Shown: positions 495 through 26,294, counted from the stretch's first letter. The stretch is 64,000 nt of DNA from an uncultured Rickettsiales bacterium (GCA_964344575.1 CAYFOA010000005.1:15105-79104); one strand, 5' to 3'. Translations and numbers: made by a program. The notes: a model not told the origin generated them from the sequence alone.

Positions 495-1253
495 GTGTTG
501 CGCCGCCTGACGTGGGACCAGTGGAGGGCGCTGGAGGACGAGTTCGCCGCGCTGGATCCGCCGACGGAGCGGGAGCGCGCCGACGTCGTCGGGCTCTACC
601 TCGTCGCCTGCCTCGCGCTGTGGGCCTCCCAGGACCTCCACAAGCCGCTCTGGTACGCGATCAAGGGGGCGTCCTGGATCCCCGGCGAGCACCGCAGCCT
701 CGCCCGCCACCTCGTCTGGTGCTGGTGGGTCATCGCCTGCTACTCGGTCCCCGCGTGGGCGTACGGCCGGTACGTCCTGGGGATGTCCCTCCGCGACCTC
801 GGGTGGCGGACGGACGGCCTGCTGAAGCACGCCTGGATCTACGTCGCGGGGTTCGCGATCGTCCTGCCGCTCGTGTTCGTCGTCGCTCCGACGCCGGGCT
901 TCCAGGAGACCTACCCCTTCTACCGCGGGGCCGGGAGGGACCTCGGCCCGACGCTGCTGTGGGAGGCCTCGTACGCGGCCCAGTTCGCCGCGCTGGAGTT
1001 CTTCTTCCGGGGGTTCCTCCTCTTCGGGGCGTTCCGCGTGGTCGGCCCGTGGGCGATCTTCGCGATGATGCTCCCCTACCTCGCCATCCACTTCCCCAAG
1101 CCGCCCCTGGAGGCGCTCGCGTCCATCGTCGCGGGGGCGGCGCTGGGGCTGGTGGCGCTGAGGACGAAGTCGATCGTGTTCGGCGTCGTCATCCACGTGG
1201 GCGTGGCGTGGACGATGGACGCGCTGGCCGTCTGGCACCGGGGCGCCGCGTGA
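495..1253 (+). CDS. CPBP family intramembrane metalloprotease (CAAX protease / Abi-like)
   Basis: Polytopic membrane protein with the EExxxR motif (ALEFFFRGFLLFG) and downstream FxxxH / HVGVAW motifs typical of the CPBP/Abi family. Confidence 0.75.
   Translation: MLRRLTWDQWRALEDEFAALDPPTERERADVVGLYLVACLALWASQDLHKPLWYAIKGASWIPGEHRSLARHLVWCWWVIACYSVPAWAYGRYVLGMSLRDLGWRTDGLLKHAWIYVAGFAIVLPLVFVVAPTPGFQETYPFYRGAGRDLGPTLLWEASYAAQFAALEFFFRGFLLFGAFRVVGPWAIFAMMLPYLAIHFPKPPLEALASIVAGAALGLVALRTKSIVFGVVIHVGVAWTMDALAVWHRGAA
1201..1240 (+). repeat. 3' end of the CPBP gene, copy A of a long-range direct repeat
   Basis: The sequence gcgtggcgtggacgatggacgcgctggccgtctggcaccg has a 27-nt exact core that recurs at 16107..16146. 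Confidence 0.7.
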
Positions 1254-1271: not shown

Positions 1272-2006
1272 ATGATCTTCGCGTTGGACACCACCCGCAG
1301 AGCGTGGGACCGGCGCCGCGCGGAGCGGGCGGTCTACCGTTGGAGCCTCGGGCTCGCCGCCGGGATCGGGCTCGCCGCCGCCGCCCTCCCCGGTGAGCTC
1401 GGCGCCATCGTCGCCCGCCGCGGGTACGGGTTCTTCGCCTTCTGGTACCTGACCGTCATCCTGCTCAGCACCCCGTGGGCGCGCTTCCACCGGGGGCGGG
1501 CCGTCGCCCGCGTCATCGCCGTGCGCGAGGCCCTGGGCAACGCCACCACCTTCCACGTCGCCGGCCACGTCCTCGCCATGGGTCTCATGGAGCCGCGGTA
1601 CCTCGTCGACTACCGGAACCCCGAGGACCTGCCCGGGATCGTCAGCTCGACGATCGTGGCGATCCTCGCGATCACCTCGCTCCCGGGCGTCCGGCGGCGG
1701 ATCCCCGGGGTCGCGTGGAAGCGCCTCCACCGGTGGGTCTACGTGGCCTGGGCGCTGATCGTGCTGGTCGTGGTCATGAGCCGGCCGTACACCGCGATCC
1801 CGCACATCGGGATCGTGCTCGTCGTGATCGGGTACCGCGTGGCGCTGTGGCGCGACCGGCGGCGAAAGGGGCACCGCATCGCGGCCGCGGACCTCGCAAA
1901 CTACGCCGCGATGACGGCGACCTTCGCGACCGTGATCGTGCTGACGATGCCCGAGGCGATGAAGGACGGGCTCGGGATCGGCCTCTTCGCGGGGATCGGG
2001 TCGTGA
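1272..2006 (+). CDS. Integral membrane protein, possibly a ferric-reductase-like (MsrQ/YedZ-type) b-heme domain
   Basis: Six predicted TM segments with conserved His residues in TM helices (FHVAGHVLAMGL, RLHRWVYVAW, AIPHIGIV). The family assignment is tentative. Confidence 0.55.
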   Translation: MIFALDTTRRAWDRRRAERAVYRWSLGLAAGIGLAAAALPGELGAIVARRGYGFFAFWYLTVILLSTPWARFHRGRAVARVIAVREALGNATTFHVAGHVLAMGLMEPRYLVDYRNPEDLPGIVSSTIVAILAITSLPGVRRRIPGVAWKRLHRWVYVAWALIVLVVVMSRPYTAIPHIGIVLVVIGYRVALWRDRRRKGHRIAAADLANYAAMTATFATVIVLTMPEAMKDGLGIGLFAGIGS

Positions 2007-3688
2007 GCGCAGCGACGGAGCCGCCGCCGCGCGGGTGGCGCGTCGTGCGGGCGGCGGGCGCCGTCGTCCTGGTCTGGATCGCGCTGGACCTTGTCTTCGG
2101 GGTCGCCCTTCCCGGCGCCGCGACCCTGGAGCAGCTCGCGTTCGCGGCCGTCGTCGAGCTTCCGGTCTACGTCATCTTCGGCGGCCCCCTGGTGTGGACG
2201 GGGGGCGCCGCCGCGATCGTCGCTGCGATCACGCTGCGGAGCCGCTTCCCCGGCCCTGCGGAGTTCCTCGGGGAAGCGTTCCAGGCCGCCGCGTGGGCGG
2301 TGGTCGGAACGGCCGGGATCGTCGGCGTGCTGAAGCTCCCGGTCCTGACGCTGCCGCTGGTGGCGGTGGCCGCGGGGAGCGCGTTCGTGCACGCGCGCGC
2401 CGCCCCCGATCGACCGACCGGACGCGCTCGCACCGCGGCGGCCGTCGCCCTGGTCGCGGTCGTGGGCGGGGCCGCCGTCGTGCAGCTCCACGCGCTCGTC
2501 TGGTCGGACGAGCTGTGGCGGTCGATCGTGGCCGCGATCGACGACGGCGCCGCCCCCGCGCGCGTCGCCCTGGTCGGCTCCGTCGTCGCCGCGGCGGGGC
2601 TCGTCGCCACGCTCCTGCCGATCCCGTTGGAGCGCCTCACGACGGACCGCGCCATCCCCCGCTGGCTGCCCCGATTCGCCCTCGGTCTCTTCCTCGCCGG
2701 CGCCCTCGGTCACGAGCGCGCGCTGGCGGGTCCGTACTTCTCGCTGTGGGGGATCGACGTGCCGGAGGCGCTGCACCGGCTCGACCGCGACCCGCGCCGC
2801 GTGCACCCCGAGGCGTTTCGGCTCGCGGCCACCGACGACGGCTCCACGCTGCTCGTCGTCTACCGCCAGAGCACCCGCCTCGCCCTCTACTCGAGCCGGG
2901 GCGGCGGCGGCCGCGGGATCCCGCTCGCCCTCCCCGACGAGGGCACGCTGGAGAACGTCGTCTGGGACGGCGCGCGGGATCGCTTCCTCGTCAGCTTCGA
3001 GCATGACGACCCGACGGCCCCGGACGCGCTCCTCGTCGTCCCCCGCGCGGGCACCCCGATCGGGCGACTGGAGGTCCCCGACCACGGCTGGATCGCCTCG
3101 CTGACCATCGACGGCGACGACCTCCTCATCGGCTACGAGGCGCGGCCGACGCTGCTCCGCTGGGATCTCGCGACGGACCGCCCCCGCGAGCCCCTCCGCC
3201 TCCCCCGCCTCGGAGACGTGGAGGACGCCGTCGCGGTCGGGGGGAGGCTCTACACCGTGCCCCTGCACCACCCCTGGGGGCTGCACCTGAGCGAGGTCGA
3301 CGTCGACGCCGGCGCCATCACCCGGCAGCTCCGCATCGGGGGCGCGAACCAGCAGCTCGTCGCGGCCGGAGACCGCCTCCTCACGGGCCGCTACTACGCC
3401 TCCCGGGTGACGGTCATCGACCGCGTCGCCTGGCGCGTCGAGCGCTCCCTCCGGGCGGGCTTCGGGGTGCGCGCGATCGGCGTCGACGTCGGGCGCGGCC
3501 TCGTCGTCACCGGCGGGCAGTACGCGGGGGAGCTGCGCGTGCACGACCTCGCGGACGGCCGCGAGCTCGCCCGCGTCCCCAGCTGCGGCTACGTCAAGGA
3601 CCTCGTCGTCGTCCGCGGCGCCGCCTTCTTCGCTTCCCTGTGCGGGGTCTGGCGCCTCGACCTCGACGCCCTCGAGCAGGCCCCGTGA
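2003..3688 (+). CDS. Membrane-anchored hypothetical protein with a C-terminal beta-propeller-like domain
   Basis: The GTG at 2003 overlaps the upstream stop (GTGA). The N-terminal 200 aa are hydrophobic and the C-terminal ~350 aa are repeat-like and soluble. It shares a frame with track ORF 1475..3688. Confidence 0.55.
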   Translation: MSAATEPPPRGWRVVRAAGAVVLVWIALDLVFGVALPGAATLEQLAFAAVVELPVYVIFGGPLVWTGGAAAIVAAITLRSRFPGPAEFLGEAFQAAAWAVVGTAGIVGVLKLPVLTLPLVAVAAGSAFVHARAAPDRPTGRARTAAAVALVAVVGGAAVVQLHALVWSDELWRSIVAAIDDGAAPARVALVGSVVAAAGLVATLLPIPLERLTTDRAIPRWLPRFALGLFLAGALGHERALAGPYFSLWGIDVPEALHRLDRDPRRVHPEAFRLAATDDGSTLLVVYRQSTRLALYSSRGGGGRGIPLALPDEGTLENVVWDGARDRFLVSFEHDDPTAPDALLVVPRAGTPIGRLEVPDHGWIASLTIDGDDLLIGYEARPTLLRWDLATDRPREPLRLPRLGDVEDAVAVGGRLYTVPLHHPWGLHLSEVDVDAGAITRQLRIGGANQQLVAAGDRLLTGRYYASRVTVIDRVAWRVERSLRAGFGVRAIGVDVGRGLVVTGGQYAGELRVHDLADGRELARVPSCGYVKDLVVVRGAAFFASLCGVWRLDLDALEQAP

Positions 3689-6096
3689 TCGTGCTCCAGA
3701 CGGCCGCCATCGTCGCGGTGGGGGTGTTCGTCTTCGGCCTCCCCGGCGCGCTCCTGGGCCGGCTCCTCGTGCCCCGCGCCGCCCCTCACGAGCGCCTCGT
3801 GCTCACGGGCGCGGCCGGCTTCTCCGTGCTGCCGCTGGGGCTCTACCTCGTCGCCACCTTCGCCGACCGGCCCATCACGCCGGGGTTCGTGCTCGTGGCC
3901 GCGGCCGCGGCGAACGCCTCGCTCGGGGCGGTCCTCCTCCGCCGGGGCGGGGACGTCGAGCGACCGGACACCAGGGCGCTCGCCGCCACCGCCGCGATGC
4001 TCGTCGCGTTCGGCGTGCTGCTCGCGGGCAGCGTGCAGCCGATCGGCGGCGTCGACGTCTTCGCGACCATCCACCACTGCATGTACGTGATGGTCCTGTA
4101 CGCCATCGGGAACGACCCGAGCGTCGGGATCCCCCTGTACGACGGCGTCGATCGCACCGTGCTGAGCCTCCTCGCCCACCACCCCCACGAGCCGCTGGGC
4201 GGCCTCGGCGGGCTCTTCGGCGAGCAGCGGCCCGGCAACGTCGCCCTGCTCGCGCCTCACGTCAGCCTCTTCGGCACGGTCGGCTGGCTGACGGCGCCCG
4301 TGCTCGCGTCGACCGTCGGCGCGGCGGCCTGCTACGCGGCGGCGCGGGAGCTGGGCGCGCGACCGGCGGTGGCGGCGGTCTGCGTCGGGGCCGGCATGCT
4401 CGGCGTGCACTCGTTCCTCGGCTACGTCATCAACGAGAACCTCTTCGGCTTCGCGCTCCTCGCCGTGTTGACGTGGCTGCTCGTCCGGCGCGACCTGTCC
4501 CCGGGGATGCTCGTGCTGGCGGGGTTGCTGATGGCCCACGTCGTCGGCGTGCGCTACACGGCGTGCCTGTTCTGGCCGGCGCTGGCGTGGCGGTTCGCGA
4601 CGGTCGAAGCGGTCGGCCGGCCGGCCCGGCGCGCCGCGCTGTGGGCGGTGCCTGCGGGGGTGCTGTCGGTGCCCTGGCTCGCCCTCAACGTCGGCCTCCT
4701 CGGCACCCCCTTCGCGCACCCCGCCGGCGCGCTCGATCTCGACGCTTCCGTGGTCGAGAACCTGCTCCCGGGGACCGACGCCGTCTTCCGCTTCAAGGCG
4801 CTGAACTACCCGTTCGCCGAGGCGCTGGTGCGCGCGCCCTGGAACCCGTTCCCCAACGCGCTGATGGTGCCCCTCCGCACGGCCCAGGAGCTCGGCGCGC
4901 CGCTGCTGGCGCTGGGGCTGGGCGGGCTCGTCCTCCACGCGGCCGGGGATCGGCGGCGGGCGCTCGCGCTGCTGGCCTTCGCGGCGCCCCACCTGCTCGC
5001 GATCGCGTGGCTGGAGAACCTGAACCGGGCCCAGCTGACGTACGTCGTGCTCGGGCTGGCCCCGCTCCTCGCGTGGGCCGCGGGGGGCGCGGAGGCGGCG
5101 GTCGCGCGGCCGCGGGATCGGGCGACGTGGGCCGCGCTGGGGGGCGCCGCTGTCCTCGTCGTGGGGGGCGGGTTCGTCGCGCGGGCGGTCGACGTCCCCC
5201 CGGACGAGCGCCTGGCCGGGGACGGCGCCGCGATCGGCCCCGACCCGGGGCTCGCCCGCGAGCTCACGACCCCGCGGCTGCTGCCCGCCCTCGCGCCCCT
5301 CCGGACGGACCGGCTCGCCGCGACGGCGGCGGCGATCCGCCACCACCGCTGGCGGCGCGGGGACGGCCGCTACCGCTCGGGCGAGGTCGCGATCACGGTG
5401 CCGGTGGGGCGCGCCGAGCCGACGACGTGGAGCTTCACCCTCACCGGTCGCCCCCACCGCCGCGAAGGCGATCCGGTCCGCACCTCCCAGGGGCTCCAGA
5501 CGGTGACGCTGGCGCTGCCGGTCGCCGAGGTGGAGGTGCGCGTGCGCGGCGCCCGGGGGGAGTACGAGGTCGCGGTCGATCCCGTCGGCCCCGAAGGGGA
5601 GGTCCACGACTTCACGTTCTTCGTCCACGGCTGGTCGCAGCCCACCCACGCGGTGGCGGTCCGCTGGAAGGGGCTGCCCCTGCCGGACGTGCGCTTCGAG
5701 CAGACGGAGTCCGAGCACGAGTGGCGCACGGGCGTCACCACCAACGTGCCCCCGCGCCTGCTCGGCCTCGTGGACGTGCCGTTCACGGTCGACCTGGGCG
5801 GGCTGGAGGCGGACTGCGGCTACTTCACCTTCGTGGGGCGGGGCGGGGGAGGGCACCGACACCCCTGGACGGGGGCCCGGTCGGGCACGATCCCGCTCCC
5901 GCCGGCCCTGCGGACGGACCGCGTCGTGTTCCTCCCCGACCCCTACTGCCGCCCGGGCCCGCCCCAGCCGGGCGCGCGCTACGCCGAGGCGGCCGGCCCC
6001 TTCGGTCCGGGACGCCCGATCCGCCTCCGCGTCGATCGCGCCTTCGGGCTGCGAGGGGGCGGCTGGCTCGAGTTCCACGACCCCCCGGGCCGGTAG
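3640..6096 (+). CDS. Polytopic membrane protein with a C-terminal soluble domain, possibly a GT-C-type glycosyltransferase
   Basis: About 11 TM helices followed by a ~300 aa non-membrane domain. An alternative start is the GTG at 3685, which overlaps the upstream stop as GTGA. Confidence 0.6.
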   Translation: MRGLAPRPRRPRAGPVIVLQTAAIVAVGVFVFGLPGALLGRLLVPRAAPHERLVLTGAAGFSVLPLGLYLVATFADRPITPGFVLVAAAAANASLGAVLLRRGGDVERPDTRALAATAAMLVAFGVLLAGSVQPIGGVDVFATIHHCMYVMVLYAIGNDPSVGIPLYDGVDRTVLSLLAHHPHEPLGGLGGLFGEQRPGNVALLAPHVSLFGTVGWLTAPVLASTVGAAACYAAARELGARPAVAAVCVGAGMLGVHSFLGYVINENLFGFALLAVLTWLLVRRDLSPGMLVLAGLLMAHVVGVRYTACLFWPALAWRFATVEAVGRPARRAALWAVPAGVLSVPWLALNVGLLGTPFAHPAGALDLDASVVENLLPGTDAVFRFKALNYPFAEALVRAPWNPFPNALMVPLRTAQELGAPLLALGLGGLVLHAAGDRRRALALLAFAAPHLLAIAWLENLNRAQLTYVVLGLAPLLAWAAGGAEAAVARPRDRATWAALGGAAVLVVGGGFVARAVDVPPDERLAGDGAAIGPDPGLARELTTPRLLPALAPLRTDRLAATAAAIRHHRWRRGDGRYRSGEVAITVPVGRAEPTTWSFTLTGRPHRREGDPVRTSQGLQTVTLALPVAEVEVRVRGARGEYEVAVDPVGPEGEVHDFTFFVHGWSQPTHAVAVRWKGLPLPDVRFEQTESEHEWRTGVTTNVPPRLLGLVDVPFTVDLGGLEADCGYFTFVGRGGGGHRHPWTGARSGTIPLPPALRTDRVVFLPDPYCRPGPPQPGARYAEAAGPFGPGRPIRLRVDRAFGLRGGGWLEFHDPPGR

Positions 6097-6106
6097 AATC
6101 GACGCG

Positions 6107-9100
6107 GTGCGGAGCGCCCCTCTCGCCGTCGCGCTGCTCGGCACCCTGGCGGTGGCGGCGCCGATGCTGTTCGGGCAGGGCGTCGACGCGGCCGATGACC
6201 TCGTCTACCACGGCACCCTGCCGTGGGAGTGGCTGCGGACGGCGTGGCGCACGGGGCAGTCGCCCTGGTATGCGCCCGGCGTCGTCGGCGGCGCGCCGCT
6301 GCTCTCGGACGCCGTCTACATGGCGCCCTTCTACCCGGCGTCGTGGCTCGTCCTCGTGCTCCCCGTGCACGTCGCCTACCCCCTCGTGTGCGTGCTCCAC
6401 GCGCTCGGCGCCGCGCTCGCCACCTGGTGGCTGGCGCGCCGCCTGGGCGCCTCCCCCGGGAGCGCCGCGCTGGCGGGGGCCGCGATCGGGATGGGGCCGC
6501 TGGGGGCGACCGGCATCGTCGACGGGCGGCCGATGCAGTGGGCGATCGTCGTCTGGCTCCCGGTCGCGTTCGGCTGCCTCGAGGCGCTGAAGTCGGCCGA
6601 GGGGCGGGCTCGCTGGCGCTGGGTCGGGGGCGCCGGCATCGCCATCGCCCTGGTCCTGCTGGGGGCCCACCTCCGCCTCGCCGCTGCCGCCGGGGCGGTC
6701 CTCGTGCTGCGGGTGCTCCTCGGGGGGCTGCCCCGCGGGCCGGCCTCCGTCGCGGTGGCGCTCGGGCTCCTCGGCGGCGCGCCGGCGGTGCTGCCGCTGC
6801 TGCTGGAGTGGCGCGAGGCGTCGGCCGGGGGAACCGCGGCCGGCTCCCTGCTCGCGGCGATGGCCGGCCCGGCCTTCGGGGGCATCCACCCGGACAACGT
6901 GCCGGGGCTCCTGGCGCCGACGCCGCGGGCCATGCGACCGGACTACAGCGTCGGCCTCGTGCTGGGGGCGGCCCTGATCCTGACCGCCGGCCGCGGACGC
7001 CTGGCGTGGCGCAGCGCGGGCGGGCGGCTGGTCGCGCTCTGGGGGATCGTCGCGACCGCGGTGTTCCTCGCCTCGTTCCCCGGCGTCCGCTACCTGACCG
7101 CGCCGCTGCTGCTCATCACCCACCCGGTCAACGACATGTACCTGGGCGCGGTCCTGCCCGTCGTCGCCGCGACGGGCGCGCTGGCCCTGGACGAGGCGAC
7201 GGCGCGGTTCGGCGAGCGGCCGCGAAGCCTGGGACGTCGCGGGCTCGTCGTCGCCGTGCTCGTGGTGGGCGCGGTCCTGGTCGCGGCGCTCCCTTCGGAC
7301 CAGATCACGGACGCGTGGACCCGCGGGCTCTACCTGCTCGGGGCCGGCCGGGCGGTCGCGATCGCCGTCGCCGCGTGGCGCATGCCCGCGCGGACGTGGG
7401 TGCCGCTGGGGATGGCGGACGTCGCGCTCTACGCCCTCGCCCTGCACGTCGCGGTGCCGTCGACGCCGCTTCGGCTGGACCGGCCGGCGGCGCAGGAGTA
7501 CGCCGAGCTGCGTGACGGCTACGCCGACTTCATCGACCTCGCCAACATGGAGCCGACCCGGTACTCGGGTGAGGGCCGCGGCTTCGTGTTCGACGGAGAG
7601 TTCCCCCCCTACCGCCTGTTCGTCGAGCAGACGCAGGAGCTGCTGGACGGCCGGAGCGTGCCCCTCGGCTACGCCGCCGCCCACGGCGTCCGCGCGCTCG
7701 CCGGCGAGCACAAGCTGACGTCGGTCCGGCAGAGCGTCGCGTTGGAGCCCCTGCTCGCCCGCATGCCGCGGGACGGACCACCGACGGACGCGGACGTCGA
7801 CGTCATCCTCGCCGTGCCGGAGGCCGCCCGGGTGATCGCGCTGCACGGGATCGGCATGGCGGTCGGACCGCGCCGGGGGGTGCGCGTGCCCGGTCCCATC
7901 GCGCCGCCCTGCTACTCGCCCGATCGGTTCGTCGTGGAGCCCGATCCGGCGGCCCGGATGCGGGCGCTGCTCGCGGCCCCCTTCGACCCGCGCCGCGCCT
8001 GGCTCGAGGCGCCGCTCCCCGCTGACGTCTCGACGGCCGCGGAGGTCACCTGCCCGTCGTCGCGGGCGGTCGCCGCCAACGCCGCCGACGGTCCCGCCCT
8101 GATCGTCTTCGGGGAGCGCTGGCACCCGGGCTGGCGGGTCCTCGACGAGGACGGGACGGAGCGCCGGCCGATGCCGGTCAACCAGATCCACCTCGGGGTC
8201 GTGGTGGAGCCGGGGCAGCACCGCCTCACGCTCGACTTCGTGCAGCCCGGCCTCGCCGCGGCGGGAGCCTGCGCCCTCGGCGCGTGGTTCCTGCTGCTCG
8301 GGCTCGTCGCGCCGTCCCTCCGGGAGACCGCCGCCGCCGCCCCGCCGCCCCCCGAAGCGCGGGGCTGGCCGACCGCCGCGGCGGTCGCGCTGTCCGCCGC
8401 CGTCGCGCTCCCCCTGGCGGTCGGCCGGGGCGTCGACCTGCCCGACGACGCGCTCTTCCACGTCGTCCCCCTCTTCGAGTGGCTCCGCACCGCGCTGCTG
8501 GAGGGTCGCTCGCCGTGGTTCGTGCCCGGCAAGCTCGGCGGCACGAGCCTGTTCGCCGACGCCTCCATCCACCCGCTGTACCCCGGCGTCTGGGGGGTGC
8601 TCGCGCTCGACGCGCACCACGCGCTCGTCGCGTCGATGGTCCTGCACGCCGTCGGCACCGTCTTCGCGGTCCGCTGGATGGCGCGCTCCTTCGGCGCCTC
8701 GGCCACCTCGGCCACGCTCGCGGGCGCCGGGGTCGCCGCGGGCACGATCGGGTGCCTGAGCGCGATCGACGTGATGGTCGACACGTGGCCCGTCTTCCTC
8801 TGGTTCCCGGTGGCTCTGGGCGCGCTGGAGCGCCTCCGCCTCGCGCCGGCGGACGACGCGGCCGCCGCGCGGCGCTGGACGGCGGTCGCGGGAGCGGCCG
8901 TGGCGCTGATGCTGCTGGGCAGCCACCTCCGGTACGGCGCCGCGGCGGGAGCCGCGCTCGGGGTGTGGGCGCTCTGGCGTCCGGGCCGCCGGGCGTGGGC
9001 TCTGGGCGCGCTCGCGATCGGCCTCGCGGGGGGCGCCGTCGCCCTCGTGCCCTCGCTCCTGGAGTGGCAGCACGCCGCGTCGGACACGGCCCGAGCGGCC

Positions 9101-10633
9101 GCGCTGTCGGTGCCGGCGCACGACCAGGTGGCGCTCTGGAACGTGCCCGGCCTGTTCGCCCCGAAGCCGCTCCGCCTCCGGCCCGACTGGTCGGTGGGGC
9201 TCGTGCTCGCGGCGGCGTTCGTCGTCGGAGGCGCGGGCACCCGCGACCGGCGCCTGTTCGCGTTCGCGATCGCGCTCTACGCGACGGGCATCGCCGGGGG
9301 AGTCCCGATCCTGCGCTACCTGTTCGCGCCCCTGCTGCTCGTCACCCACCCCGTCGACACGTTCTGGGGGGCGCTGGCGCTGCTCCCCGGCGCCGCGGTC
9401 GGCGCCCTCGCGCTGGACCGGCTCCTCGCCGAGGACCGGGTCGCGTTGGCCGCCCGGCTCCGGGGACCGGCCGGCGCGGTGCTCGGCGTCGTCCTCGCAG
9501 GCGGCGTCCTCCGCGTCGCGCTGGCCTCGTCGTGGCTGCCTTCGGAGGTGGAGCGGCAGGGCGTGCTCGTCGCCGCGCTCCAGGCCGCCGCGGTCGTGGC
9601 GGCGCTCGTCGTCGTCCTCCGGATGCCCCCCGGCCGGCGCCGCACCGCGGCCGTCGCGGCGATCGCGCTGATCGACCTGGCGGCCCTGGCGGTCCGCTTC
9701 CACACGGCCCTGCCGTCGGTCCCGCTGGAGCTGGCGGACCGGGTGGAGGACGCGGACGCCGAAGCCCTCGCCGGCGGCTACCTCCACCTCGGCGAGTTGG
9801 CCGACCTGGAGGGCTTCCTCTACGACACCGGGGGGATGGGGCCGAGCGCCGACCTCGCCGACGAAGGGGAGAACTTCGACGACCTCGCGCGGTACCTCCG
9901 GGAGAACATCGTCCACCTGCGCTGGCCCGTGCACCTCGGCGTGGGCCGGGGGATCCGGGGGGCGAGCGGGCGCGCGAAGATGCCGCCTCGCCGGCCCCTG
10001 GCGCTGCTCGCGCCGCTGGCGGACGCCATCGTCGGCGACGGCCCCGAGCGCAAGCGCCTGGAGGACGACCACCCCGAGCTGATCCGGCCGCTGTTCCGGG
10101 ACGCCTCCGCCCTCGGCACCAACACGCTGCGCCTGATGCGCGTCCGCACCGCGGTCGGCGGGATCGACGGCTCGCTCCGGTTCGACGCGGGGCCGCCCCA
10201 GCCCCGCTGCTGGACTGCCCCGTCGGTGCGCGTGCTCGCCGGCGAGGACGAACGCGTGGCCGAGCTGCTGGCGGCTCCCTTCGACCCGGCGGCGCCCGCG
10301 ATCGTCGAGGACCCGACCCTCGCCGAGCGCCCGCTCGTCCCCGCCACCGCCCGCTGCGACGACACCGGCGACGTGGCGGTGGAGGCGACCGGCCCGGCCC
10401 TCGTCGTGGTCGGCGAGACCTGGCACCCGGGCTGGCGCGTCGGCGACGGCCGGCCGACCTTCCCCGTCAACCAGGTCCACTTCGGCTTCTTCGCCGACGC
10501 CTCCGACGAGGCGCCCCTCGCCCTGCGGTTCGTCCCCCCGGGGCTGCTCCCCGCGGCGGGGGCGTCGGCGCTCGCCTGGCTCACCGTCGTCGGCCTCGCC
10601 CTCGCGGCGCGCCGGTCCGGGCGCGGGGCCTGA
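6107..10633 (+). CDS. Tandemly duplicated YfhO-like membrane protein (two YfhO-family modules fused, 1508 aa)
   Basis: Both halves start with the YfhO-like N-terminus (HGTLPWEWLRTAWRTGQSPWYAPGVVGGAPLL and HVVPLFEWLRTALLEGRSPWFVPGKLGGTSLF). Both end with the YfhO C-terminal W-HPGWRV motif (ERWHPGWRV and ETWHPGWRV) plus a terminal TM helix. Confidence 0.75.
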   Translation: MRSAPLAVALLGTLAVAAPMLFGQGVDAADDLVYHGTLPWEWLRTAWRTGQSPWYAPGVVGGAPLLSDAVYMAPFYPASWLVLVLPVHVAYPLVCVLHALGAALATWWLARRLGASPGSAALAGAAIGMGPLGATGIVDGRPMQWAIVVWLPVAFGCLEALKSAEGRARWRWVGGAGIAIALVLLGAHLRLAAAAGAVLVLRVLLGGLPRGPASVAVALGLLGGAPAVLPLLLEWREASAGGTAAGSLLAAMAGPAFGGIHPDNVPGLLAPTPRAMRPDYSVGLVLGAALILTAGRGRLAWRSAGGRLVALWGIVATAVFLASFPGVRYLTAPLLLITHPVNDMYLGAVLPVVAATGALALDEATARFGERPRSLGRRGLVVAVLVVGAVLVAALPSDQITDAWTRGLYLLGAGRAVAIAVAAWRMPARTWVPLGMADVALYALALHVAVPSTPLRLDRPAAQEYAELRDGYADFIDLANMEPTRYSGEGRGFVFDGEFPPYRLFVEQTQELLDGRSVPLGYAAAHGVRALAGEHKLTSVRQSVALEPLLARMPRDGPPTDADVDVILAVPEAARVIALHGIGMAVGPRRGVRVPGPIAPPCYSPDRFVVEPDPAARMRALLAAPFDPRRAWLEAPLPADVSTAAEVTCPSSRAVAANAADGPALIVFGERWHPGWRVLDEDGTERRPMPVNQIHLGVVVEPGQHRLTLDFVQPGLAAAGACALGAWFLLLGLVAPSLRETAAAAPPPPEARGWPTAAAVALSAAVALPLAVGRGVDLPDDALFHVVPLFEWLRTALLEGRSPWFVPGKLGGTSLFADASIHPLYPGVWGVLALDAHHALVASMVLHAVGTVFAVRWMARSFGASATSATLAGAGVAAGTIGCLSAIDVMVDTWPVFLWFPVALGALERLRLAPADDAAAARRWTAVAGAAVALMLLGSHLRYGAAAGAALGVWALWRPGRRAWALGALAIGLAGGAVALVPSLLEWQHAASDTARAAALSVPAHDQVALWNVPGLFAPKPLRLRPDWSVGLVLAAAFVVGGAGTRDRRLFAFAIALYATGIAGGVPILRYLFAPLLLVTHPVDTFWGALALLPGAAVGALALDRLLAEDRVALAARLRGPAGAVLGVVLAGGVLRVALASSWLPSEVERQGVLVAALQAAAVVAALVVVLRMPPGRRRTAAVAAIALIDLAALAVRFHTALPSVPLELADRVEDADAEALAGGYLHLGELADLEGFLYDTGGMGPSADLADEGENFDDLARYLRENIVHLRWPVHLGVGRGIRGASGRAKMPPRRPLALLAPLADAIVGDGPERKRLEDDHPELIRPLFRDASALGTNTLRLMRVRTAVGGIDGSLRFDAGPPQPRCWTAPSVRVLAGEDERVAELLAAPFDPAAPAIVEDPTLAERPLVPATARCDDTGDVAVEATGPALVVVGETWHPGWRVGDGRPTFPVNQVHFGFFADASDEAPLALRFVPPGLLPAAGASALAWLTVVGLALAARRSGRGA

Positions 10634-10635
10634 GG

Positions 10636-12750
10636 ATGGTGCGGTCGCGGCGCGCGATCCACGCGGCGTCGGCCGCGCTGTTCGGCTTCGTCGCGATCAC
10701 GGGGCTGTACGTGCTCCTCGCCGAGCTGTTCACGCCCGGCTACTTCCCGATGCTCGCCGCTCACGTGTACGTCGGCCTGCTCCTCGCGATCGCCGTGCCG
10801 ATCGGGCTGGGGCTGCACCTGAAGCGGACGTCGTCGCCCGGGCTCCGGTCGATGCTGCCGGTGGTCGCGCTCCTCGCGATCCCGACCCTGCTGGTGGAGA
10901 TCGCGCTGCGGGCGGAGATCCGGAGCGTGCAGGACGTGCCCAGTCGGGACGGGCTCGACCGGCTGTTCGGGGAGATCGCCCTGCTCGTCTGGGGCACCGA
11001 CGGCGGCGACGGCGCCACGGTGGGGTCCGCGGCGGGCCTCGCGACCGGGCTGGCGCTCTTCTCCGCGGCGCTGGCGTGGTGGCTGCGCGAGCGGCAGCCG
11101 TCGGTCCCGGTGCGGTGGACGGGGGTGCTCGCGACGGCGGCGCTCATGCTCGCGGTGACGACCGGCCTGACCAGCTGGCTGGGGCGGGGGGACGCGCGCT
11201 TCGACGCGTTCGCTGCCCACTCCCTGGTCGGCCTCCTGTGCATCGTCGCGACCGTCGCCCACCTCCGCGCGCCCCGCCGGTGGCTCGGGCCGCGCCTCGG
11301 CGCGGTGGCGCTCGTGGCGGTGCTCGCGGGGGCGACCTGGGCGTGGGTCGAGACCTACCCCGAGGAGCACACCTGGCGCGTGCAGGACGACGTCCCCGAG
11401 ATGGGCCCGCGGGACCTGCACGCCGACGGTGCAGACCTCGGGCAGCCGATCGACGCCTCGCTCCTCGAAGGCTCGGCCGGTTGCGGCGAGGCCGGCTGCC
11501 ACGAGGCCCTCACCCACCAGTGGCAGGGGTCGGCGCACGCCTTCGCGGCGGACAACGCGCTGTACCGGGCGGTGGTGCGGCAGCTCGTGAGCGAGAGGGG
11601 CGCGGGCGAGGCACGGTTCTGCGCCGGCTGCCACGACCCCGTGAGGGCGCTCGCGGGCACGGTCGAGGCCGCGTACGCCGCCGGCGATCCGCCTCCCGGC
11701 GAAGGCGTCTCCTGCGTGGTCTGCCACGTGATGGTGGCGCACACCGGCGAGCCCAAGAACGGAGACGCCGCCTACCGCACGCCGATCCCCTACCCGGGCA
11801 CCGACGAGGACCAGCGCGCGGCCCGGATCCGGCTCGATCCGCGCTACCACCGGATGACGATGACCTCGCCGCTGACCGTGCACCGCGAGCTGTGCGGCAC
11901 CTGCCACCGCGTCCGGCTCGGTCCGTTCATGGGGGCCGCGGTCGAGGTCGAGGTCCAGAACGCGTACGAGGGCGAGGGCTCGATGGGGGGGTACGGCGGC
12001 ACCAGCCAGCTCTGCAGCGACTGCCACCTGCCCACGACGACGGAGCAGCCGCGGCACAGCCTGCTGCTGTACGACCACCAGATGGGTGGGCTGAACCTCG
12101 ATCTGCCGGCCTACGTGACCCACCCCGAGGCCGACCGGGCCGCCCTGGCGGACGGCGTGGCCCGAGTCGAGGCCATGATCGCGGGCGCGCTCCCCGACGG
12201 GCGCCAGTTCCCGCCCCCGCCCTTCGTGGCCGACTGGCCGCTGGCCGAGGGCGCGCCGGGGGTCCTCGCGGTCGAGGTGACGCCGACGCGCGTCGCCGAC
12301 CAGCTGGCGGTGCGCGTGACGACCGGGAACCCCCGCATCGGGCACGCCTTCCCCGTGGGCCCCTTCGACCTGCGGGAGGTGTGGCTCCGGGTCGTCGTCC
12401 GGGACGATGCCGGAGACGCGATCGCGACCCTCGGCGCCCTGGACGCCGACGGCCGCGTGCCCGAGGACGCGCCCCGCCTCGGCGCCGTCGAGCTCGACCG
12501 GTCGGGGCAGCCGCTCCGGCGGCACCGCATCTGGGACGTCGCCGGCGTCCGCGACAAGCGCACGATCCCCCGCGGCGGCACCGTCACCGACGACGTCGTG
12601 CTGGCCCTGCCTCCGGACGCGGCCGGGCCCCTCACGGTCGAGGCGACCTGGCTGGTCCGCCGCACGAACCCCGACTTCGCCGCCTTCGCGCTGGGGCCCG
12701 AGCACCCCGGGTTCCCCGTCCACGAGGTGGCCTGGGGGCGGTCGCCGTGA
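10636..12750 (+). CDS. Membrane-anchored multiheme c-type cytochrome
   Basis: N-terminal ~6-TM domain with His-containing helices, then four canonical CxxCH heme motifs (CAGCH, CVVCH, CGTCH, CSDCH) and one CX4CH (CGEAGCH). The start is the first ATG after the upstream stop. Confidence 0.75.
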   Translation: MVRSRRAIHAASAALFGFVAITGLYVLLAELFTPGYFPMLAAHVYVGLLLAIAVPIGLGLHLKRTSSPGLRSMLPVVALLAIPTLLVEIALRAEIRSVQDVPSRDGLDRLFGEIALLVWGTDGGDGATVGSAAGLATGLALFSAALAWWLRERQPSVPVRWTGVLATAALMLAVTTGLTSWLGRGDARFDAFAAHSLVGLLCIVATVAHLRAPRRWLGPRLGAVALVAVLAGATWAWVETYPEEHTWRVQDDVPEMGPRDLHADGADLGQPIDASLLEGSAGCGEAGCHEALTHQWQGSAHAFAADNALYRAVVRQLVSERGAGEARFCAGCHDPVRALAGTVEAAYAAGDPPPGEGVSCVVCHVMVAHTGEPKNGDAAYRTPIPYPGTDEDQRAARIRLDPRYHRMTMTSPLTVHRELCGTCHRVRLGPFMGAAVEVEVQNAYEGEGSMGGYGGTSQLCSDCHLPTTTEQPRHSLLLYDHQMGGLNLDLPAYVTHPEADRAALADGVARVEAMIAGALPDGRQFPPPPFVADWPLAEGAPGVLAVEVTPTRVADQLAVRVTTGNPRIGHAFPVGPFDLREVWLRVVVRDDAGDAIATLGALDADGRVPEDAPRLGAVELDRSGQPLRRHRIWDVAGVRDKRTIPRGGTVTDDVVLALPPDAAGPLTVEATWLVRRTNPDFAAFALGPEHPGFPVHEVAWGRSP

Positions 12751-14411
12751 GCCGGGCCCGGTGCGCCTGGTTGCTGGCGGTGCTGGCCGCCTGCCCCGCG
12801 CCCGACGACGACGACGACTTCGCCGTGGGCGACGACGACGACGACGACGCGACGGTCGAGACCCGTCCCCTGGGGCCGGGCTCCGAGGGGGACTTCGCCT
12901 GGGGCGACGACGTCGTCTGCGAGGACCCCTTCGCGGGGTGGGCCGGCCGCTTCGTCGAGGACGGCGCCGATCGCGGGCTGACCGAGGTGCTCGCGGGGGA
13001 GCTCATCGAAGACGGCGGCATCTACGAGGGCTACGCGTCCGTCGTGCCCGCCGACCTCGACGGGGACGGGGACCTCGACCTCGTCTTCGGGCACGACGGC
13101 GGCGCCGTGCACGCGTACCTCAACGACGGCGCCGGGGACTTCGACCCGGCCCCGACCTTCGAGTCGCCCCCGACGTGGCCGCACGGAGACCAGCCGCCGC
13201 TCCTCGCGGTGGCCGACCTCGACGGCGATGCGCTGCCCGAGGTCCTCGCCGTGGGGGAGCAGGCCTGGGTCTGGGACGACCTCGGGGACGGCTCGTGGGG
13301 CGCGCCCGCCGTGATCGCGGCGTCGTTCGACGAGCCCCCGGCGGCGCTGACGGTGGGCGACACCGACGGAGACGGCGACCTGGACGCCGTGCTCGGCACC
13401 TTCGCGGCGGGCCCCGACGGCCCGTACTTCCCGGAGCTCCTCCTCCTCAACGACGGCGCCGGGGGGTTCACCGTCGCGGGCGAAGTCGTCGCGACCGCCG
13501 GCCACGTCAGCACCCAGGCGATCACGCTGACGGATCGGGACCTCGACGGGGACCCGGACCTGTTCGTGGCGGACGGGATGTTCGACGCCGCCGCCCCCTC
13601 GGCCTTCTTCACCAACGACGGCAGCGGCGGCTTCACCGACGAGGCGGCGGCCCTGTCGGCGGACCTCGTGCTCGCGGGCATGGGGTTCGCGACCTGGGAC
13701 TGGAACGGCGACGGCGCCTTCGACTACTGCGTGACCGACGTCGGGCCGGCGCGCTGCCTCGTGTCCGACGGCGGGGGCCGGTTCTTCGAGGCCACCGCCC
13801 AGATCGGGCTGGGGCCGGCGGAGCGGCCGTTCGAGGAGCTCGAGGTCGCCACGATCGGCTGGTCGCTGGACGTCGTCGACCTGGACCACGACGGCGTGCT
13901 CGACGCGGTGCAGGCGTCGGCCCCCGACTTCGGCACGGGCCTCGCCCCGGATCAGCTCCGCTGGCCGGACCTCGTGTGGCGGGGGACGTCCGACGGCGCG
14001 TTCGTCGACGTCACCGGCGGCTCCGGCTTCGGCACGTCCGACGCCAACTACGGGTCCGCGCCGGGCGACTTCGACGGGGACGGCAGCCAGGACATCGTCG
14101 TCGCCGGCCCCGGCCGCCGGCCCCGCCTCTACCTGAACCGGTGCAGCGCCGGGGGCTGGCTGGAGGTCGAGCTGCTCGGCCCCCCGGGCAACGCCGACGC
14201 CATCGGCGCCGTGCTGTGGGTCGACGGGGCGTCGCCGCGGGAGCTCCAGGGGCCGCGGGGGTGGGGGCAGCGGCCGAGCCGGTTCCACGTGGGCCTCGGG
14301 GACGCGACGGAGGCCTCGCTGGAACTCCGCTGGCCGGACGGTGCGGTCAGCACGATCGACCGGCTCCGGCCGCGTCGTCGCGTCGTCGTCACCCACCCTG
14401 CTGCGCGCTAG
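12747..14411 (+). CDS. ASPIC/UnbV plus FG-GAP repeat lipoprotein (CRTAC1-like)
   Basis: The GTG overlaps the upstream stop (GTGA). It has a lipoprotein signal (VSRARCAWLLAVLAAC), DxDGDGxxD FG-GAP repeats and a UnbV_ASPIC-type C-terminus (AIGAVLWVDG...FHVGLGDATEASLELRWPDG). Confidence 0.75.
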   Translation: MSRARCAWLLAVLAACPAPDDDDDFAVGDDDDDDATVETRPLGPGSEGDFAWGDDVVCEDPFAGWAGRFVEDGADRGLTEVLAGELIEDGGIYEGYASVVPADLDGDGDLDLVFGHDGGAVHAYLNDGAGDFDPAPTFESPPTWPHGDQPPLLAVADLDGDALPEVLAVGEQAWVWDDLGDGSWGAPAVIAASFDEPPAALTVGDTDGDGDLDAVLGTFAAGPDGPYFPELLLLNDGAGGFTVAGEVVATAGHVSTQAITLTDRDLDGDPDLFVADGMFDAAAPSAFFTNDGSGGFTDEAAALSADLVLAGMGFATWDWNGDGAFDYCVTDVGPARCLVSDGGGRFFEATAQIGLGPAERPFEELEVATIGWSLDVVDLDHDGVLDAVQASAPDFGTGLAPDQLRWPDLVWRGTSDGAFVDVTGGSGFGTSDANYGSAPGDFDGDGSQDIVVAGPGRRPRLYLNRCSAGGWLEVELLGPPGNADAIGAVLWVDGASPRELQGPRGWGQRPSRFHVGLGDATEASLELRWPDGAVSTIDRLRPRRRVVVTHPAAR

Positions 14412-14486
14412 GAGCGGCGCCGCGCCCGCCGCGCGAGGTCGAGCACGGCCTCCACGGGGCCCTGAGCCCACCGCCGATCCCGGCCT

Positions 14487-16091
14487 ATGCTGGACGATGG
14501 CGTGCGGCAGCTTCTCCCCGTCCTGATCCTCTCGGCGGCGTGTGGGTCGGTGCCCCCCGAGCCCGAGGCGACGCCCGGCGACCCGGCGGCGACGACCCCC
14601 GGCTACGACGACGGCAGCGCGCTCGCCGATCTCGGCTTCCGCCAGTCGCAGGTCGGTCCGGACGTCGGCTACTGGGCCCGGATCGTCGGCGGGGGGGTCG
14701 TCGCCGCCGACCTCGACGCCGACGGGTTCGACGACCTGTTCTTCCCCCAGGCCGCCGGCGCCAACGCGCTCTACTGGGGGCAAGGGGACGGCACGTTCGT
14801 CGCCGACGCCTCGCTCGCCTTCGACTCCGACGTCACCGTCGCCGCGTCCACCGCGGACGCCGACGGGGACGGCCGCCTCGACCTGCTGCTGCTCGGGCAG
14901 GACGTCCTCCGGTTGTTCCTCAGCGCCGGCGACCGCACCTTCGCGGAGACCGCCATGCCGCCCGTCGACGGCGTCGCGGCCACGTCCGCGTGGGGCGACC
15001 TGGACCTCGACGGGGACCTCGATCTGTTCGTCGGTGTCTATGCTGGAGACACGCCGTCGGAAGCCGCCGGAGGCACCGAGGCGGGGCGGCCCAACCTCTG
15101 GCTCCTCAACGACGGCGCCGCCACCTTCGAGCCCCTGCCCCCGCCCCCCGGCAGCGACGGCGCGCCCCTGCACGCCCTCTTCCGGGACTTCGACCACGAC
15201 GGCCGCCCCGACCTGCTCCAGGTCAACGACTTCGGCCTCGAGGGCGACTGGAACACCATGCTCTGGATGCGCGACGGCGAGGGCGGCTGGATCGACCGCG
15301 CCTCCGAGCTCGGCATCGGGCTGCTCGAGTTCCCCATGGGCGCGCTCCACGACGACCTCGACGGGGACGGCGTCGAGGACCTCTGGTTCAGCAACATCGG
15401 CGCCACCCGCGTCTTCCAGGGGCTGGCCGAGGGCGGCTGGGTGGAGGTGTCCGGCCTGTGGGGCGCGGCCCTGCCGTCGCACCACGAGTCCGTGAGCTGG
15501 AGCGTGCTGCCCGTCGACCCCGACGGCGACGGCCGGCCCGGCGTCTACGTCACCTACGGGCCCATGTCCGAGCTCGACCACGTGCCCGACGACCCCGACG
15601 TCTACTTCGACCAGCCCGACCGGCTGCTCGTCCCGACCTCCGGCGCCGACGACGCCCCGAGCCCGTTCGCGGAGGCGCCCGCCGGTACGCTGGCGGGGCG
15701 GCTGGACGGCAACCACCGGGGCGTCGCCGAGGCCGACCTCAACAGCGACGGGGTGCCCGACCTCGTGGTCGGGGCCGTCAACGGCGAGCCGCTGGTGCTC
15801 CTCGGGCGGCCCGGCGGAGGGCGACGGCTGGCGGTCGAGCTGCGCGATCCGGCGTCGCCCAACGGGTTCGCGATCGGCGCCCGCGTCACCGTCGAGGCGG
15901 GGGGGCGGACGTGGAGCCGCGAGCTCGGCGCGGGCGGGCGCGGGAGCCAGAGCGGCGAGGGGCCCGTGCTCTGGTTCGCGGTCGGGGACGCCGGCGCGAT
16001 CGACGGCCTGGCGGTGGCGTGGCCCGGCGGCGGGAGCGACGTCTTCGACGTGGACTGCGTGGACTGCCGGATCGTGCTGACGCGACCCTAG
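14487..16091 (+). CDS. ASPIC/UnbV plus FG-GAP repeat lipoprotein, paralogous to the preceding gene
   Basis: Lipobox LSAAC, FG-GAP repeats and a UnbV_ASPIC C-terminus (FAIGARVTVEAGG...VLWFAVGDAGAIDGLAVAWPGG). Confidence 0.8.
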   Translation: MLDDGVRQLLPVLILSAACGSVPPEPEATPGDPAATTPGYDDGSALADLGFRQSQVGPDVGYWARIVGGGVVAADLDADGFDDLFFPQAAGANALYWGQGDGTFVADASLAFDSDVTVAASTADADGDGRLDLLLLGQDVLRLFLSAGDRTFAETAMPPVDGVAATSAWGDLDLDGDLDLFVGVYAGDTPSEAAGGTEAGRPNLWLLNDGAATFEPLPPPPGSDGAPLHALFRDFDHDGRPDLLQVNDFGLEGDWNTMLWMRDGEGGWIDRASELGIGLLEFPMGALHDDLDGDGVEDLWFSNIGATRVFQGLAEGGWVEVSGLWGAALPSHHESVSWSVLPVDPDGDGRPGVYVTYGPMSELDHVPDDPDVYFDQPDRLLVPTSGADDAPSPFAEAPAGTLAGRLDGNHRGVAEADLNSDGVPDLVVGAVNGEPLVLLGRPGGGRRLAVELRDPASPNGFAIGARVTVEAGGRTWSRELGAGGRGSQSGEGPVLWFAVGDAGAIDGLAVAWPGGGSDVFDVDCVDCRIVLTRP

Positions 16092-16155: not shown

Positions 16156-17556
16156 ATGAGCCGGCTCCTCCTCGCGGCGCTCCTGACCCTCCTGTGCGCG
16201 TGCCCCGCGCCGGAGTCCGAGCCGGTCCCGGTCGTCCCCGAGGACCCCGGCCCCTGGCCGATCACCACGGGGCTGAGCGTGACGGACGTCGTGGTCAACC
16301 AGGGGGTCGAGATCGCGCTGCAGCGCGACGGCGAGCCGGTCGCCGAGCGGAACGCCCCCGTCGTCGCCGGGCGGCCGCTCCTCGTCCGCGTCGCCGTCGC
16401 CACGGACTTCCTCTGGAACCCGCGGGAGGTGCGCGCCGAGCTGACCCTGCTCCAGCCCGACGGGACGTCCGACCGGCGCGACCAGGTCGTCTTCGTCGAC
16501 GAGGACGGCGACCTGCTCGACCCCGACACGACCCTGCACTTCCGGCTCGCGGCGACCGACGTCCTCCCGGGGACGCGCTTCGCCGTCAGCTTCTGGGCGA
16601 CCCGGGACCTGGGCCAGGACGGCGACCCCGTGGCGTGGCCCGCGTACGGCGAGACGGCGCCGCTGCTGGCCGACGACGCCGGCGGCCTGCTCCGCGTCTG
16701 GCTCCTCCCCGTCCGCTACACCGCCGACGGCAGCGACCGCCTCCCCGACACCAGCCCCGAGCAGATCCGCCTCCTCGAGGAGACGCTCGCCGGGATGCTG
16801 CCGGTGCGGGCCGTCGAGCTGTCGGTCCTCGACCCGATCGAGACGACCGAGCACTGGGACAGCGGAGGCGCGTCCATGGGCGCGCTCCTGAGCCACCTGC
16901 GCGACCTCCGCGAGAACCTCCACGTCCCCTGGGACACGTACCTGTACGCGCTCGTCAGCCCCCGCAACACGTGGGGCGGGTTCTGCAACCTCGGCTGCAC
17001 CGCGGGCATCTCCTACCGGCCCACCAACCCGATCAACGACCGCCTCCGCGTCAGCGTCGGGCTGGGCTTCACCGGGGTGAACGCCGCCTACGTGATGGTC
17101 CACGAGCTCGGCCACGCGCACGACCGGGGGCACGCGCCGTGCGGCAACGCCGGCAACGTCGACCCCGACTTCCCCTACGTCGGCGGCTGGATCGGGACGC
17201 GCGGGTACGACGTCGTCAACGACGTCCACTACGGCACCGTCGACGCGTACGACGTCATGGGGTACTGCGACCCGGACTGGGTGAGCGACTACACCTACGC
17301 GGCCGTCCACGAGCGGATGGGGGCGGTCGAGGGGCTGCGGGACGAGCACAGCGCCCGCGCGGTGGAGGACTGGACGGCGATCGACGTGTTCGGCGGCGAG
17401 GTCCGGAAGGTCCACCCGACGCGGTCGTTCGCGTTCACCCCCGAGGGCGATCGGGTCGACGTCGAGCTCCCCGACGGCCGCACGGTCGAGGGCTGGCGCG
17501 TCCCCATGACGCACATCGACGGGGCGACGATCTTCGTCCCCGGCGCGATCGACTAG
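16156..17556 (+). CDS. Secreted zinc metalloprotease lipoprotein
   Basis: Lipobox LLCAC and the zinc-binding motif HELGHAHDRGH (HExxHxxxxxH). The ATG overlaps the stop of a CPBP-gene remnant (CCATGA). Confidence 0.7.
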   Translation: MSRLLLAALLTLLCACPAPESEPVPVVPEDPGPWPITTGLSVTDVVVNQGVEIALQRDGEPVAERNAPVVAGRPLLVRVAVATDFLWNPREVRAELTLLQPDGTSDRRDQVVFVDEDGDLLDPDTTLHFRLAATDVLPGTRFAVSFWATRDLGQDGDPVAWPAYGETAPLLADDAGGLLRVWLLPVRYTADGSDRLPDTSPEQIRLLEETLAGMLPVRAVELSVLDPIETTEHWDSGGASMGALLSHLRDLRENLHVPWDTYLYALVSPRNTWGGFCNLGCTAGISYRPTNPINDRLRVSVGLGFTGVNAAYVMVHELGHAHDRGHAPCGNAGNVDPDFPYVGGWIGTRGYDVVNDVHYGTVDAYDVMGYCDPDWVSDYTYAAVHERMGAVEGLRDEHSARAVEDWTAIDVFGGEVRKVHPTRSFAFTPEGDRVDVELPDGRTVEGWRVPMTHIDGATIFVPGAID

Positions 17557-26292: not shown

Positions 26293-26294
26293 CC

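Follow-up and report, generated by a model that had tools for sequence, protein, structure and literature searches.

A 64,000-nucleotide stretch of DNA from an uncultured Rickettsiales bacterium (GCA_964344575.1 CAYFOA010000005.1:15105-79104), referred to here as the window, harbours an open reading frame (ORF) of 1508 codons at positions 6107-10633 on the plus strand, the product of which consists of two homologous, YfhO-like units in a single chain. This fused gene, whose product is annotated as hypothetical, is a real and conserved in-frame gene fusion, and an artefact was excluded for practical purposes. Judged from the sequence, from a structural model and by analogy with known enzymes, the protein is probably a single-chain pair of paralogous YfhO-related glycosyltransferases of the GT-C fold, in which both units would be active, would differ in specificity and would carry out coupled steps. 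GT-C enzymes build many of the glycans of the cell envelope, and several of them operate as non-covalent homodimers or heterodimers, whose cooperation is difficult to investigate. In a natural covalent pair of distinct YfhO-type modules, both the stoichiometry and the identity of the partner are fixed.

Two complete units in one reading frame

The window has a G+C content of approximately 76%, which gives long ORFs in all frames, and the coding frame of the fused gene was singled out by the frame-specific profile of G+C at third codon positions (GC3). As GC3 is near 0.97, the length of an ORF in the window is by itself no evidence that it is a gene; at 5825-10480 (minus strand) and 8284-12750 (plus strand), the fused gene is overlapped in other frames by spurious ORFs of about 1500 amino acids (aa). 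The ORF at 6107-10633 contained no internal stop codon, and its GC3 was 0.93-1.00 throughout in a single frame, unbroken over the junction near 8324-8365. The flanking genes on the same strand (3685-6096 and 10636-12750) lie in frames other than that of the fused gene.

Alignment of aa 1-749 with aa 750-1508 by BLASTP with composition-based statistics gave 37% identity over 763 columns (258 bits, E 2e-79), and the two halves were collinear from end to end. The best of 200 block-shuffled C halves, used as a control, reached 26.9 bits. Both halves carry WHPGW(R)V (aa 672-678 and 1439-1445) and, immediately past the first transmembrane (TM) helix, the motif V-D-x-x-D-D (D27/D30/D31 and D777/D780/D781). 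A profile of the family matched the fused protein twice at full length (aa 3-742 and aa 752-1505). In an alignment of 11 units (A1), comprising both halves of the window protein, both halves of its orthologue P0002 and the N-terminal units of the related proteins P0004-P0011, there were 57 invariant columns, all of which were held by both halves. The V-D-x-x-D-D motif was invariant in 38 of 40 other units.

The orthologue P0002 (1513 aa, 61% identity) contains two full units with a linker of similar length and is present in two assemblies; its source is labelled 'MAG: Proteobacteria bacterium' Ust_8 (MAG, metagenome-assembled genome). A protein identical to the fused product of the window was also found on a metagenome contig in ENA. 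No in-frame ATG, GTG or TTG codon occurs between codons 712 and 806, a region that includes the linker, and the second unit therefore cannot be translated separately; the flanking in-frame starts lie within the beta-sandwich of the first unit (codon 712) and past the acidic motif of the second (codon 806). A merger of neighbouring genes by sequencing error, frameshift or chimeric assembly might be suspected in high-GC DNA, where stop codons are few and spurious long ORFs abound, but the same architecture in other assemblies, the identical ENA protein, the continuous GC3 signal and the lack of a start for the second unit, along with the similar linker length, leave this explanation with a negligible likelihood.

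A preliminary description of this locus had given the coordinates of the ORF exactly. It had pointed to the W-HPGWRV signature in both halves, which was found as described above, and had proposed a self-alignment of the halves, which proved significant. Its proposal of an in-frame fusion of complete YfhO-related GT-C modules is borne out by the homology of the halves and by the orthologue of the same architecture, and no missed stop codon or frameshift separating two genes was found.

The AF2 model of the N half, computed from alignment A1, had a pLDDT of 80.1 and a pTM of 0.85. In this model, aa 1-450 form about 13 TM helices, aa 451-713 an extracytoplasmic domain of mixed alpha/beta structure with a terminal beta-sandwich, and aa 716-734 a last TM helix. 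Hydropathy analysis gave approximately 28 TM segments over the whole protein, distributed alike in the two units, and together with the model it indicated 13 TM helices, a periplasmic domain of about 265 residues and a closing TM helix per unit. With 13 + 1 helices each unit would start and finish in the cytoplasm, and the linker of 14 residues would thus be cytoplasmic and the second unit would be inserted with the orientation of the first. Both acidic loops and both large domains are predicted to face the periplasm, judging by the model, by hydropathy and by the topology known for GT-C proteins. An invariant pair of cysteines in the large domain (C602/C649) would fit a periplasmic disulfide.

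Fold, putative activity and proposed coupling of the units

The first 11 PDB matches of the N-half model in Foldseek were all GT-C proteins at a probability of 1.00 (AftD 6w98, STT3 6ezn, ArnT 5f15/5ezm, PglB), and the next matches were ALG9, Pmt4 and DPY19. GT-C enzymes have an acidic motif of the DXD or DxxD type in the first extracytoplasmic loop (PMC5836110). The best structural matches, AftD, ArnT and PglB/STT3, have in common an acidic catalytic loop (EL1) and donors linked to polyprenyl phosphate; they differ from the N unit in their periplasmic domains, and no sequence similarity to them was detected.

The relationship to YfhO was established by profiles. When the A1 profile was compared with 1.84 billion representative proteins, 8890 matches were obtained at E<1e-3 and 58 at E<1e-30, and members of the YfhO family were reached at E 1e-15 to 1e-22. 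An alignment of 54 distant matches in this last range (A3), of which 53 match Pfam YfhO at E<=1e-3, was aligned with A1 by hhalign at a probability of 100% (E 8.3e-61) over 676 columns spanning the whole unit, and the near-invariant aspartate of the YfhO members aligned with D31. By these profiles and the model, the unit belongs to the YfhO superfamily, as a divergent member, and has a predicted GT-C fold. The YfhO proteins of Bacillus subtilis, Staphylococcus aureus and Listeria monocytogenes (PF09586), which glycosylate lipoteichoic and wall teichoic acids from C55-P-GlcNAc, are homologous to the unit over its full length. YfhO chemistry uses a C55-P-sugar donor and an extracytoplasmic acceptor (PMC5836110, PMC8035078), and B. 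subtilis YfhO spans the membrane with 13 TM helices, the last two of which are separated by a large loop (PMC5836110). The layout is the same in both units of the fused protein, with about 13 TM helices, then a large extracytoplasmic domain and the last TM helix. The C-terminal PGW motif is conserved, as is the aspartate of the first outer loop. In contrast to the fused protein, the described YfhO proteins consist of one unit. Searches of PDB sequences with the A1 profile and with the YfhO profile (A3) found no relative.

Thirteen charged positions (D27, D30, D31, E41, H98, D139, H188, R190, D279, R307, H339, K536 and R541, numbered as in the N unit) were retained in both halves in a comparison of 47 units. 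As this invariant core is kept in both modules, the presence of two active sites is plausible. Identity between the window protein and P0002 was 61% for the N units and 63% for the C units. In the subdomain at aa 451-600, the N and C units were 23% identical, and the orthologous units 62-63%. This pattern of conservation agrees with two specialised modules that selection maintains and that differ in substrate specificity, and the low identity of the subdomain between units is the reason for proposing that the two sites differ in specificity.

In the mechanism proposed here, both units would be active, each with a site facing the periplasm. A polyprenyl-phosphate-sugar would serve each of them as donor at the outer face of the inner membrane, and the sugar would be passed on to an acceptor in the periplasm. 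By holding the units together as a 1:1 heterodimer, the fusion would couple two glycosylation steps on one periplasmic or outer-leaflet acceptor, for which Pmt1-Pmt2 and EmbA-EmbB, both non-covalent GT-C pairs and the latter a GT-C heterodimer (PMC7341804), are the models. In Pmt1-Pmt2 (6p25), in the Pmt4 homodimer (9i5k) and in EmbA-EmbB, as is assumed for the fused protein, two GT-C modules work side by side, each with a periplasmic or luminal active site of its own. Those pairs are non-covalent, whereas the units described here are joined covalently through the predicted cytoplasmic linker, with an assumed interface between them; the covalent join would be made possible by the extra closing TM helix.

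Several observations weigh against this interpretation. The label 'YfhO-like' in the preliminary description, although upheld by the full-length profile-profile homology, is not supported at the level of Pfam, as the N half scored only 9.7 bits (E 0.34) over aa 674-717, below the gathering threshold of 28.5 for PF09586, and the C half had no Pfam YfhO match. An NCBIfam scan of the fused protein gave no matches. The TM-scores of the N-half model to solved GT-C structures were modest in Foldseek (0.3-0.43), and even for B. subtilis YfhO in vitro proof is lacking (PMC5836110). No CsbB/GtrB-type GT-A glycosyltransferase or GtrA flippase adjoins the fused gene, in contrast to YfhO, which is encoded with a GT-A synthase of the C55-P-sugar (CsbB/GtlA type) and served by a flippase of the GtrA type; the only GT2 in the part of the window scanned with Pfam (up to 43.5 kb) is of soluble size and lies 26 kb from the fused gene (36679-37476). 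The known acceptors of YfhO are teichoic acids (PMC8035078). The genes for OEP, HlyD and AcrB in the window show that the host, apparently a Myxococcota-like MAG, is didermic and thus has no teichoic acids, which are therefore not the target. Finally, the N lineage, including the stand-alone protein P0025, is substituted at five positions (K59V/T, D143M/P/T, R445A/T/G, H521G and R534E). At least 30 of 40 other units conserve the original residues, and the C unit is canonical at all five positions; the activity of the N unit could be altered or lost as a consequence of these substitutions.

One half, most likely the N unit, might accordingly be an inactive pseudo-enzyme, serving as a scaffold, as a binder of the lipid carrier or as an acceptor-binding partner of the canonical C unit, which would make the protein a pseudo-heterodimer with a single site. 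The replacement of the five conserved charged residues speaks for this, and so does the N unit of P0002, which has lost WHPGW and reads FGQGW. Against it, the N unit keeps D27, D30, D31 and ten further charged residues of the core, the identical five substitutions are fixed in P0025, which has no fused partner, and the N units of the orthologues are conserved about as well as the C units. A pseudo-enzyme is considered unlikely on this balance, but is the most serious of the alternatives. The C unit of P0002 retains WHPGW; the FGQGW of its N unit implies that the N lineage does not strictly need the motif.

The units might also have the GT-C fold without being sugar transferases of the YfhO type, and act as polymerases, ligases or transferases of other lipid-linked groups, possibly tied to the redox proteins encoded nearby. 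The lack of an adjacent GT-A enzyme or flippase, the redox and uncharacterised membrane proteins that form the conserved neighbourhood, and the position of the family outside Pfam YfhO would agree with such a function. The full-length homology to YfhO, including the conserved aspartate, and the structural neighbours, which are all glycosyltransferases dependent on polyprenyl-(di)phosphate-sugars, argue against it and make it improbable.

A more specific version of the two-enzyme interpretation can be put forward only tentatively, and is judged possible rather than expected: the protein may be an obligate single-chain GT-C heterodimer, in which two differently specialised sites, the canonical C site and the derived N site, act sequentially on one periplasmic acceptor, possibly the FG-GAP/ASPIC lipoproteins, and may belong to a wider, so far undescribed habit of a marine Myxococcota-like clade of hard-wiring GT-C pairs (of the self type, the PMT_2 type and a third, divergent type). 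If so, it would be the first tractable system for cooperation between GT-C modules. The fused protein would be a convenient structural target, because its stoichiometry and partner are fixed, and the more so as the PDB sequence searches gave no solved relative.

Origin of the two units and architectures of their relatives

The N half shared 46-49% identity with P0025, a stand-alone protein, and 56% with the unit part of P0003, and the C half was 43-45% identical to the stand-alone P0018 and 42% identical to P0023. In a bootstrapped neighbour-joining tree of 47 units (200 replicates), the N unit, the N unit of P0002 and P0025 formed a clade with 100% bootstrap support, and a clade of N and C units only was recovered in 0 of 200 replicates. 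As the N and C units are not sisters and each is nearer to stand-alone proteins, the gene is a fusion of two old paralogues and not a recent internal duplication. The data support the view that the two units are anciently diverged paralogues of different subfamilies, and that the protein is effectively a covalent heterodimer. The C unit is canonical, and the N unit is of a derived subtype, of which P0025 is a stand-alone example. A recent tandem duplication of one gene in situ would account for the collinearity of the halves over their whole length, but with halves that are merely 37% identical, that are each closer to a single-unit protein and that never group together in the tree, this origin is very improbable. 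An ancient fusion followed by repeated fission is less parsimonious. The term 'internally duplicated' in the preliminary description can thus be retained only in an ancient sense.

Full-length members of the family had three architectures, namely single units of 735-833 aa (the majority), a unit followed by PMT_2 (PF13231; approximately 1390-1706 aa), and two units. Among the best 150 matches listed from the 1.84 billion representatives, the two-unit architecture occurred only in P0001 and P0002, which form one cluster at 50% identity. Fusions of a unit with PMT_2 (P0004-P0011, P0013-P0016, P0019, P0021 and P0024) are the commonest multi-module architecture in the clade. Like the fused protein, these have an N-terminal unit of the same type (35-40% identity) followed by a second GT-C module in one chain; the partner differs in coming from another GT-C family (ArnT/PMT-like) and in being attached through an extra TM hairpin and a periplasmic insert of about 120 aa. 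The covalent GT-C dimer had been called unusual; this applies to the self-type tandem, which is rare, and not to fusion with a second GT-C module, which is common in the clade, mostly with a PMT_2-type partner. Such recurrent fusion suggests that didermic bacteria have a pathway of periplasmic glycosylation with two steps.

No split pair, that is, adjacent genes of the N type and the C type, was found in the 28 fetched loci, in which adjacent units occurred only in the orthologue. The protein P0160 (1546 aa) was considered as a third fused member and rejected, as it is P0002 with different first 230 residues and is 99.9% identical thereafter. A gene of 742 aa that follows P0025 in locus L003 was likewise rejected as a split partner, because it is not a unit but a homologue (hhalign 97%) of UP818, the multi-TM protein encoded upstream of the fused gene. 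In P0003 (L017:171-3368), an N-type unit continues in frame into an FG-GAP/ASPIC protein, with a segment resembling a signal peptide or lipobox between the two; the first ~30 residues of P0003 do not align with the unit, and the 5' end may be misassembled. P0050 (L018:2-3217), which is cut by the contig end, has a unit followed by a second multi-TM module of about 630 aa, whose resemblance to the family is confined to the beta-sandwich at the C terminus and the final TM helix (hhalign 66%); this module may represent a third type of tandem partner.

The MAGs of the relatives were labelled 'Kofleriaceae' and 'Deltaproteobacteria', Kofleriaceae being placed in Myxococcota. The searches define a YfhO-related clade, previously unannotated, that comes from high-GC MAGs of marine origin and comprises 58 representative clusters at E<1e-30. 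Literature searches found no paper on tandem or fused GT-C proteins. The two-unit YfhO-like architecture has not been described previously; no concept is overturned by it, since the fold, the likely chemistry and the dimeric mode of operation were already known.

Genomic neighbourhood

The fused gene lies within a tightly packed cluster of genes on the plus strand. The features of the gene, of its product and of the cluster are listed in Table 1.

Table 1. Positions in the window of the fused gene, the parts of its product and the neighbouring genes
Feature	Position	Strand	Remarks
Rce1-like protease	495-1253	+	
Ferric_reduct (PF01794) membrane protein	1272-2006	+	counterparts adjoin related genes in L001 and L017
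561-aa protein	2003-3688	+	uncharacterised
UP818, ~800-aa multi-TM protein	3685-6096	+	ends 10 nt upstream of the fused gene
Fused gene	6107-10633	+	1508 aa; two YfhO-like modules (predicted GT-C), ~28 TM helices, two periplasmic domains
N unit, TM core	6107-7456	+	aa 1-450, ~13 TM helices; from AF2 helices, hydropathy and GT-C fold matches
N unit, acidic motif D27-A-A-D30-D31	6185-6199	+	first periplasmic loop; putative catalytic site
N unit, periplasmic domain	7457-8245	+	aa 451-713; subdomain 451-600, then beta-sandwich with C602 and C649
N unit, W-H-P-G-W	8120-8134	+	aa 672-676; in the sole stretch with a weak Pfam YfhO match
N unit, closing helix TM14	8246-8323	+	aa 714-739; predicted return of the chain to the cytoplasm; AF2, hydropathy
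Linker, Ala/Pro-rich	8324-8365	+	aa 740-753, ETAAAAPPPPEARG
C unit, TM core	8366-9712	+	aa 754-1202; alignment, hydropathy
C unit, acidic motif D777-L-P-D780-D781	8435-8449	+	
C unit, periplasmic domain	9713-10540	+	aa 1203-1478; alignment, hydropathy
C unit, W-H-P-G-W	10421-10435	+	aa 1439-1443
C unit, closing TM helix	10541-10612	+	aa 1479-1502; hydropathy
Membrane-anchored multihaem cytochrome	10636-12750	+	CxxCH motifs, Cytochrome_C554 match; starts 3 nt past the stop of the fused gene; 65% identity to the L001 counterpart
Two FG-GAP/ASPIC beta-propeller proteins	12747-14411, 14487-16091	+	
466-aa protein	16156-17556	+	uncharacterised

In the orthologous locus L001 (P0002 at 10001-14542), the 561-aa protein, UP818, the Ferric_reduct protein and the cytochrome are all encoded within 20 kb. 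In L003, the single N-type P0025 is followed by the UP818 homologue and by orthologues of both FG-GAP/ASPIC genes, and in L017 the gene for P0003, with its own FG-GAP/ASPIC part, is followed by a Ferric_reduct gene at 3365-4084. UP818 combines about 12-13 TM helices with a C-terminal domain that is rich in beta structure, and in the window, L001 and L003 it adjoins a YfhO-like unit or lies within 10 kb of one. It had no match in Pfam or NCBIfam, and a search of 5.8 billion proteins gave four relatives including the query; the AF2 model, computed from these four sequences only, had a pLDDT of 46. UP818 was considered as a relative of the YfhO-like unit or of the PMT_2 halves and was rejected, as no profile similarity to either was found. 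The FG-GAP/ASPIC lipoproteins and UP818 were the most consistent genomic partners.

The Ferric_reduct protein and the multihaem cytochrome are conserved beside the fused gene in both genomes. Three FG-GAP/ASPIC (UnbV) paralogues are present in the window (12747-14411 and 14487-16091 on the plus strand, and 23953-26298 on the minus strand); the first has an N-terminal lipobox-like LAAC followed by an Asp-rich stretch, and the third has putative copper-binding motifs of the MopE type. Further along the window, at 41113-42741 on the plus strand, a Ser/Thr protein kinase domain and an FGE-sulfatase (formylglycine-generating-enzyme-like) domain are combined in one protein. In the flanks of L001 and L003, genes for a Rieske oxygenase and a B12-binding radical SAM protein recur, with a Peptidase_M50 gene in L001. 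Genes for a DegT aminotransferase-SDR fusion and for a carbamoyltransferase also lie in the flanks of L003 and suggest that sugar modification is encoded nearby.

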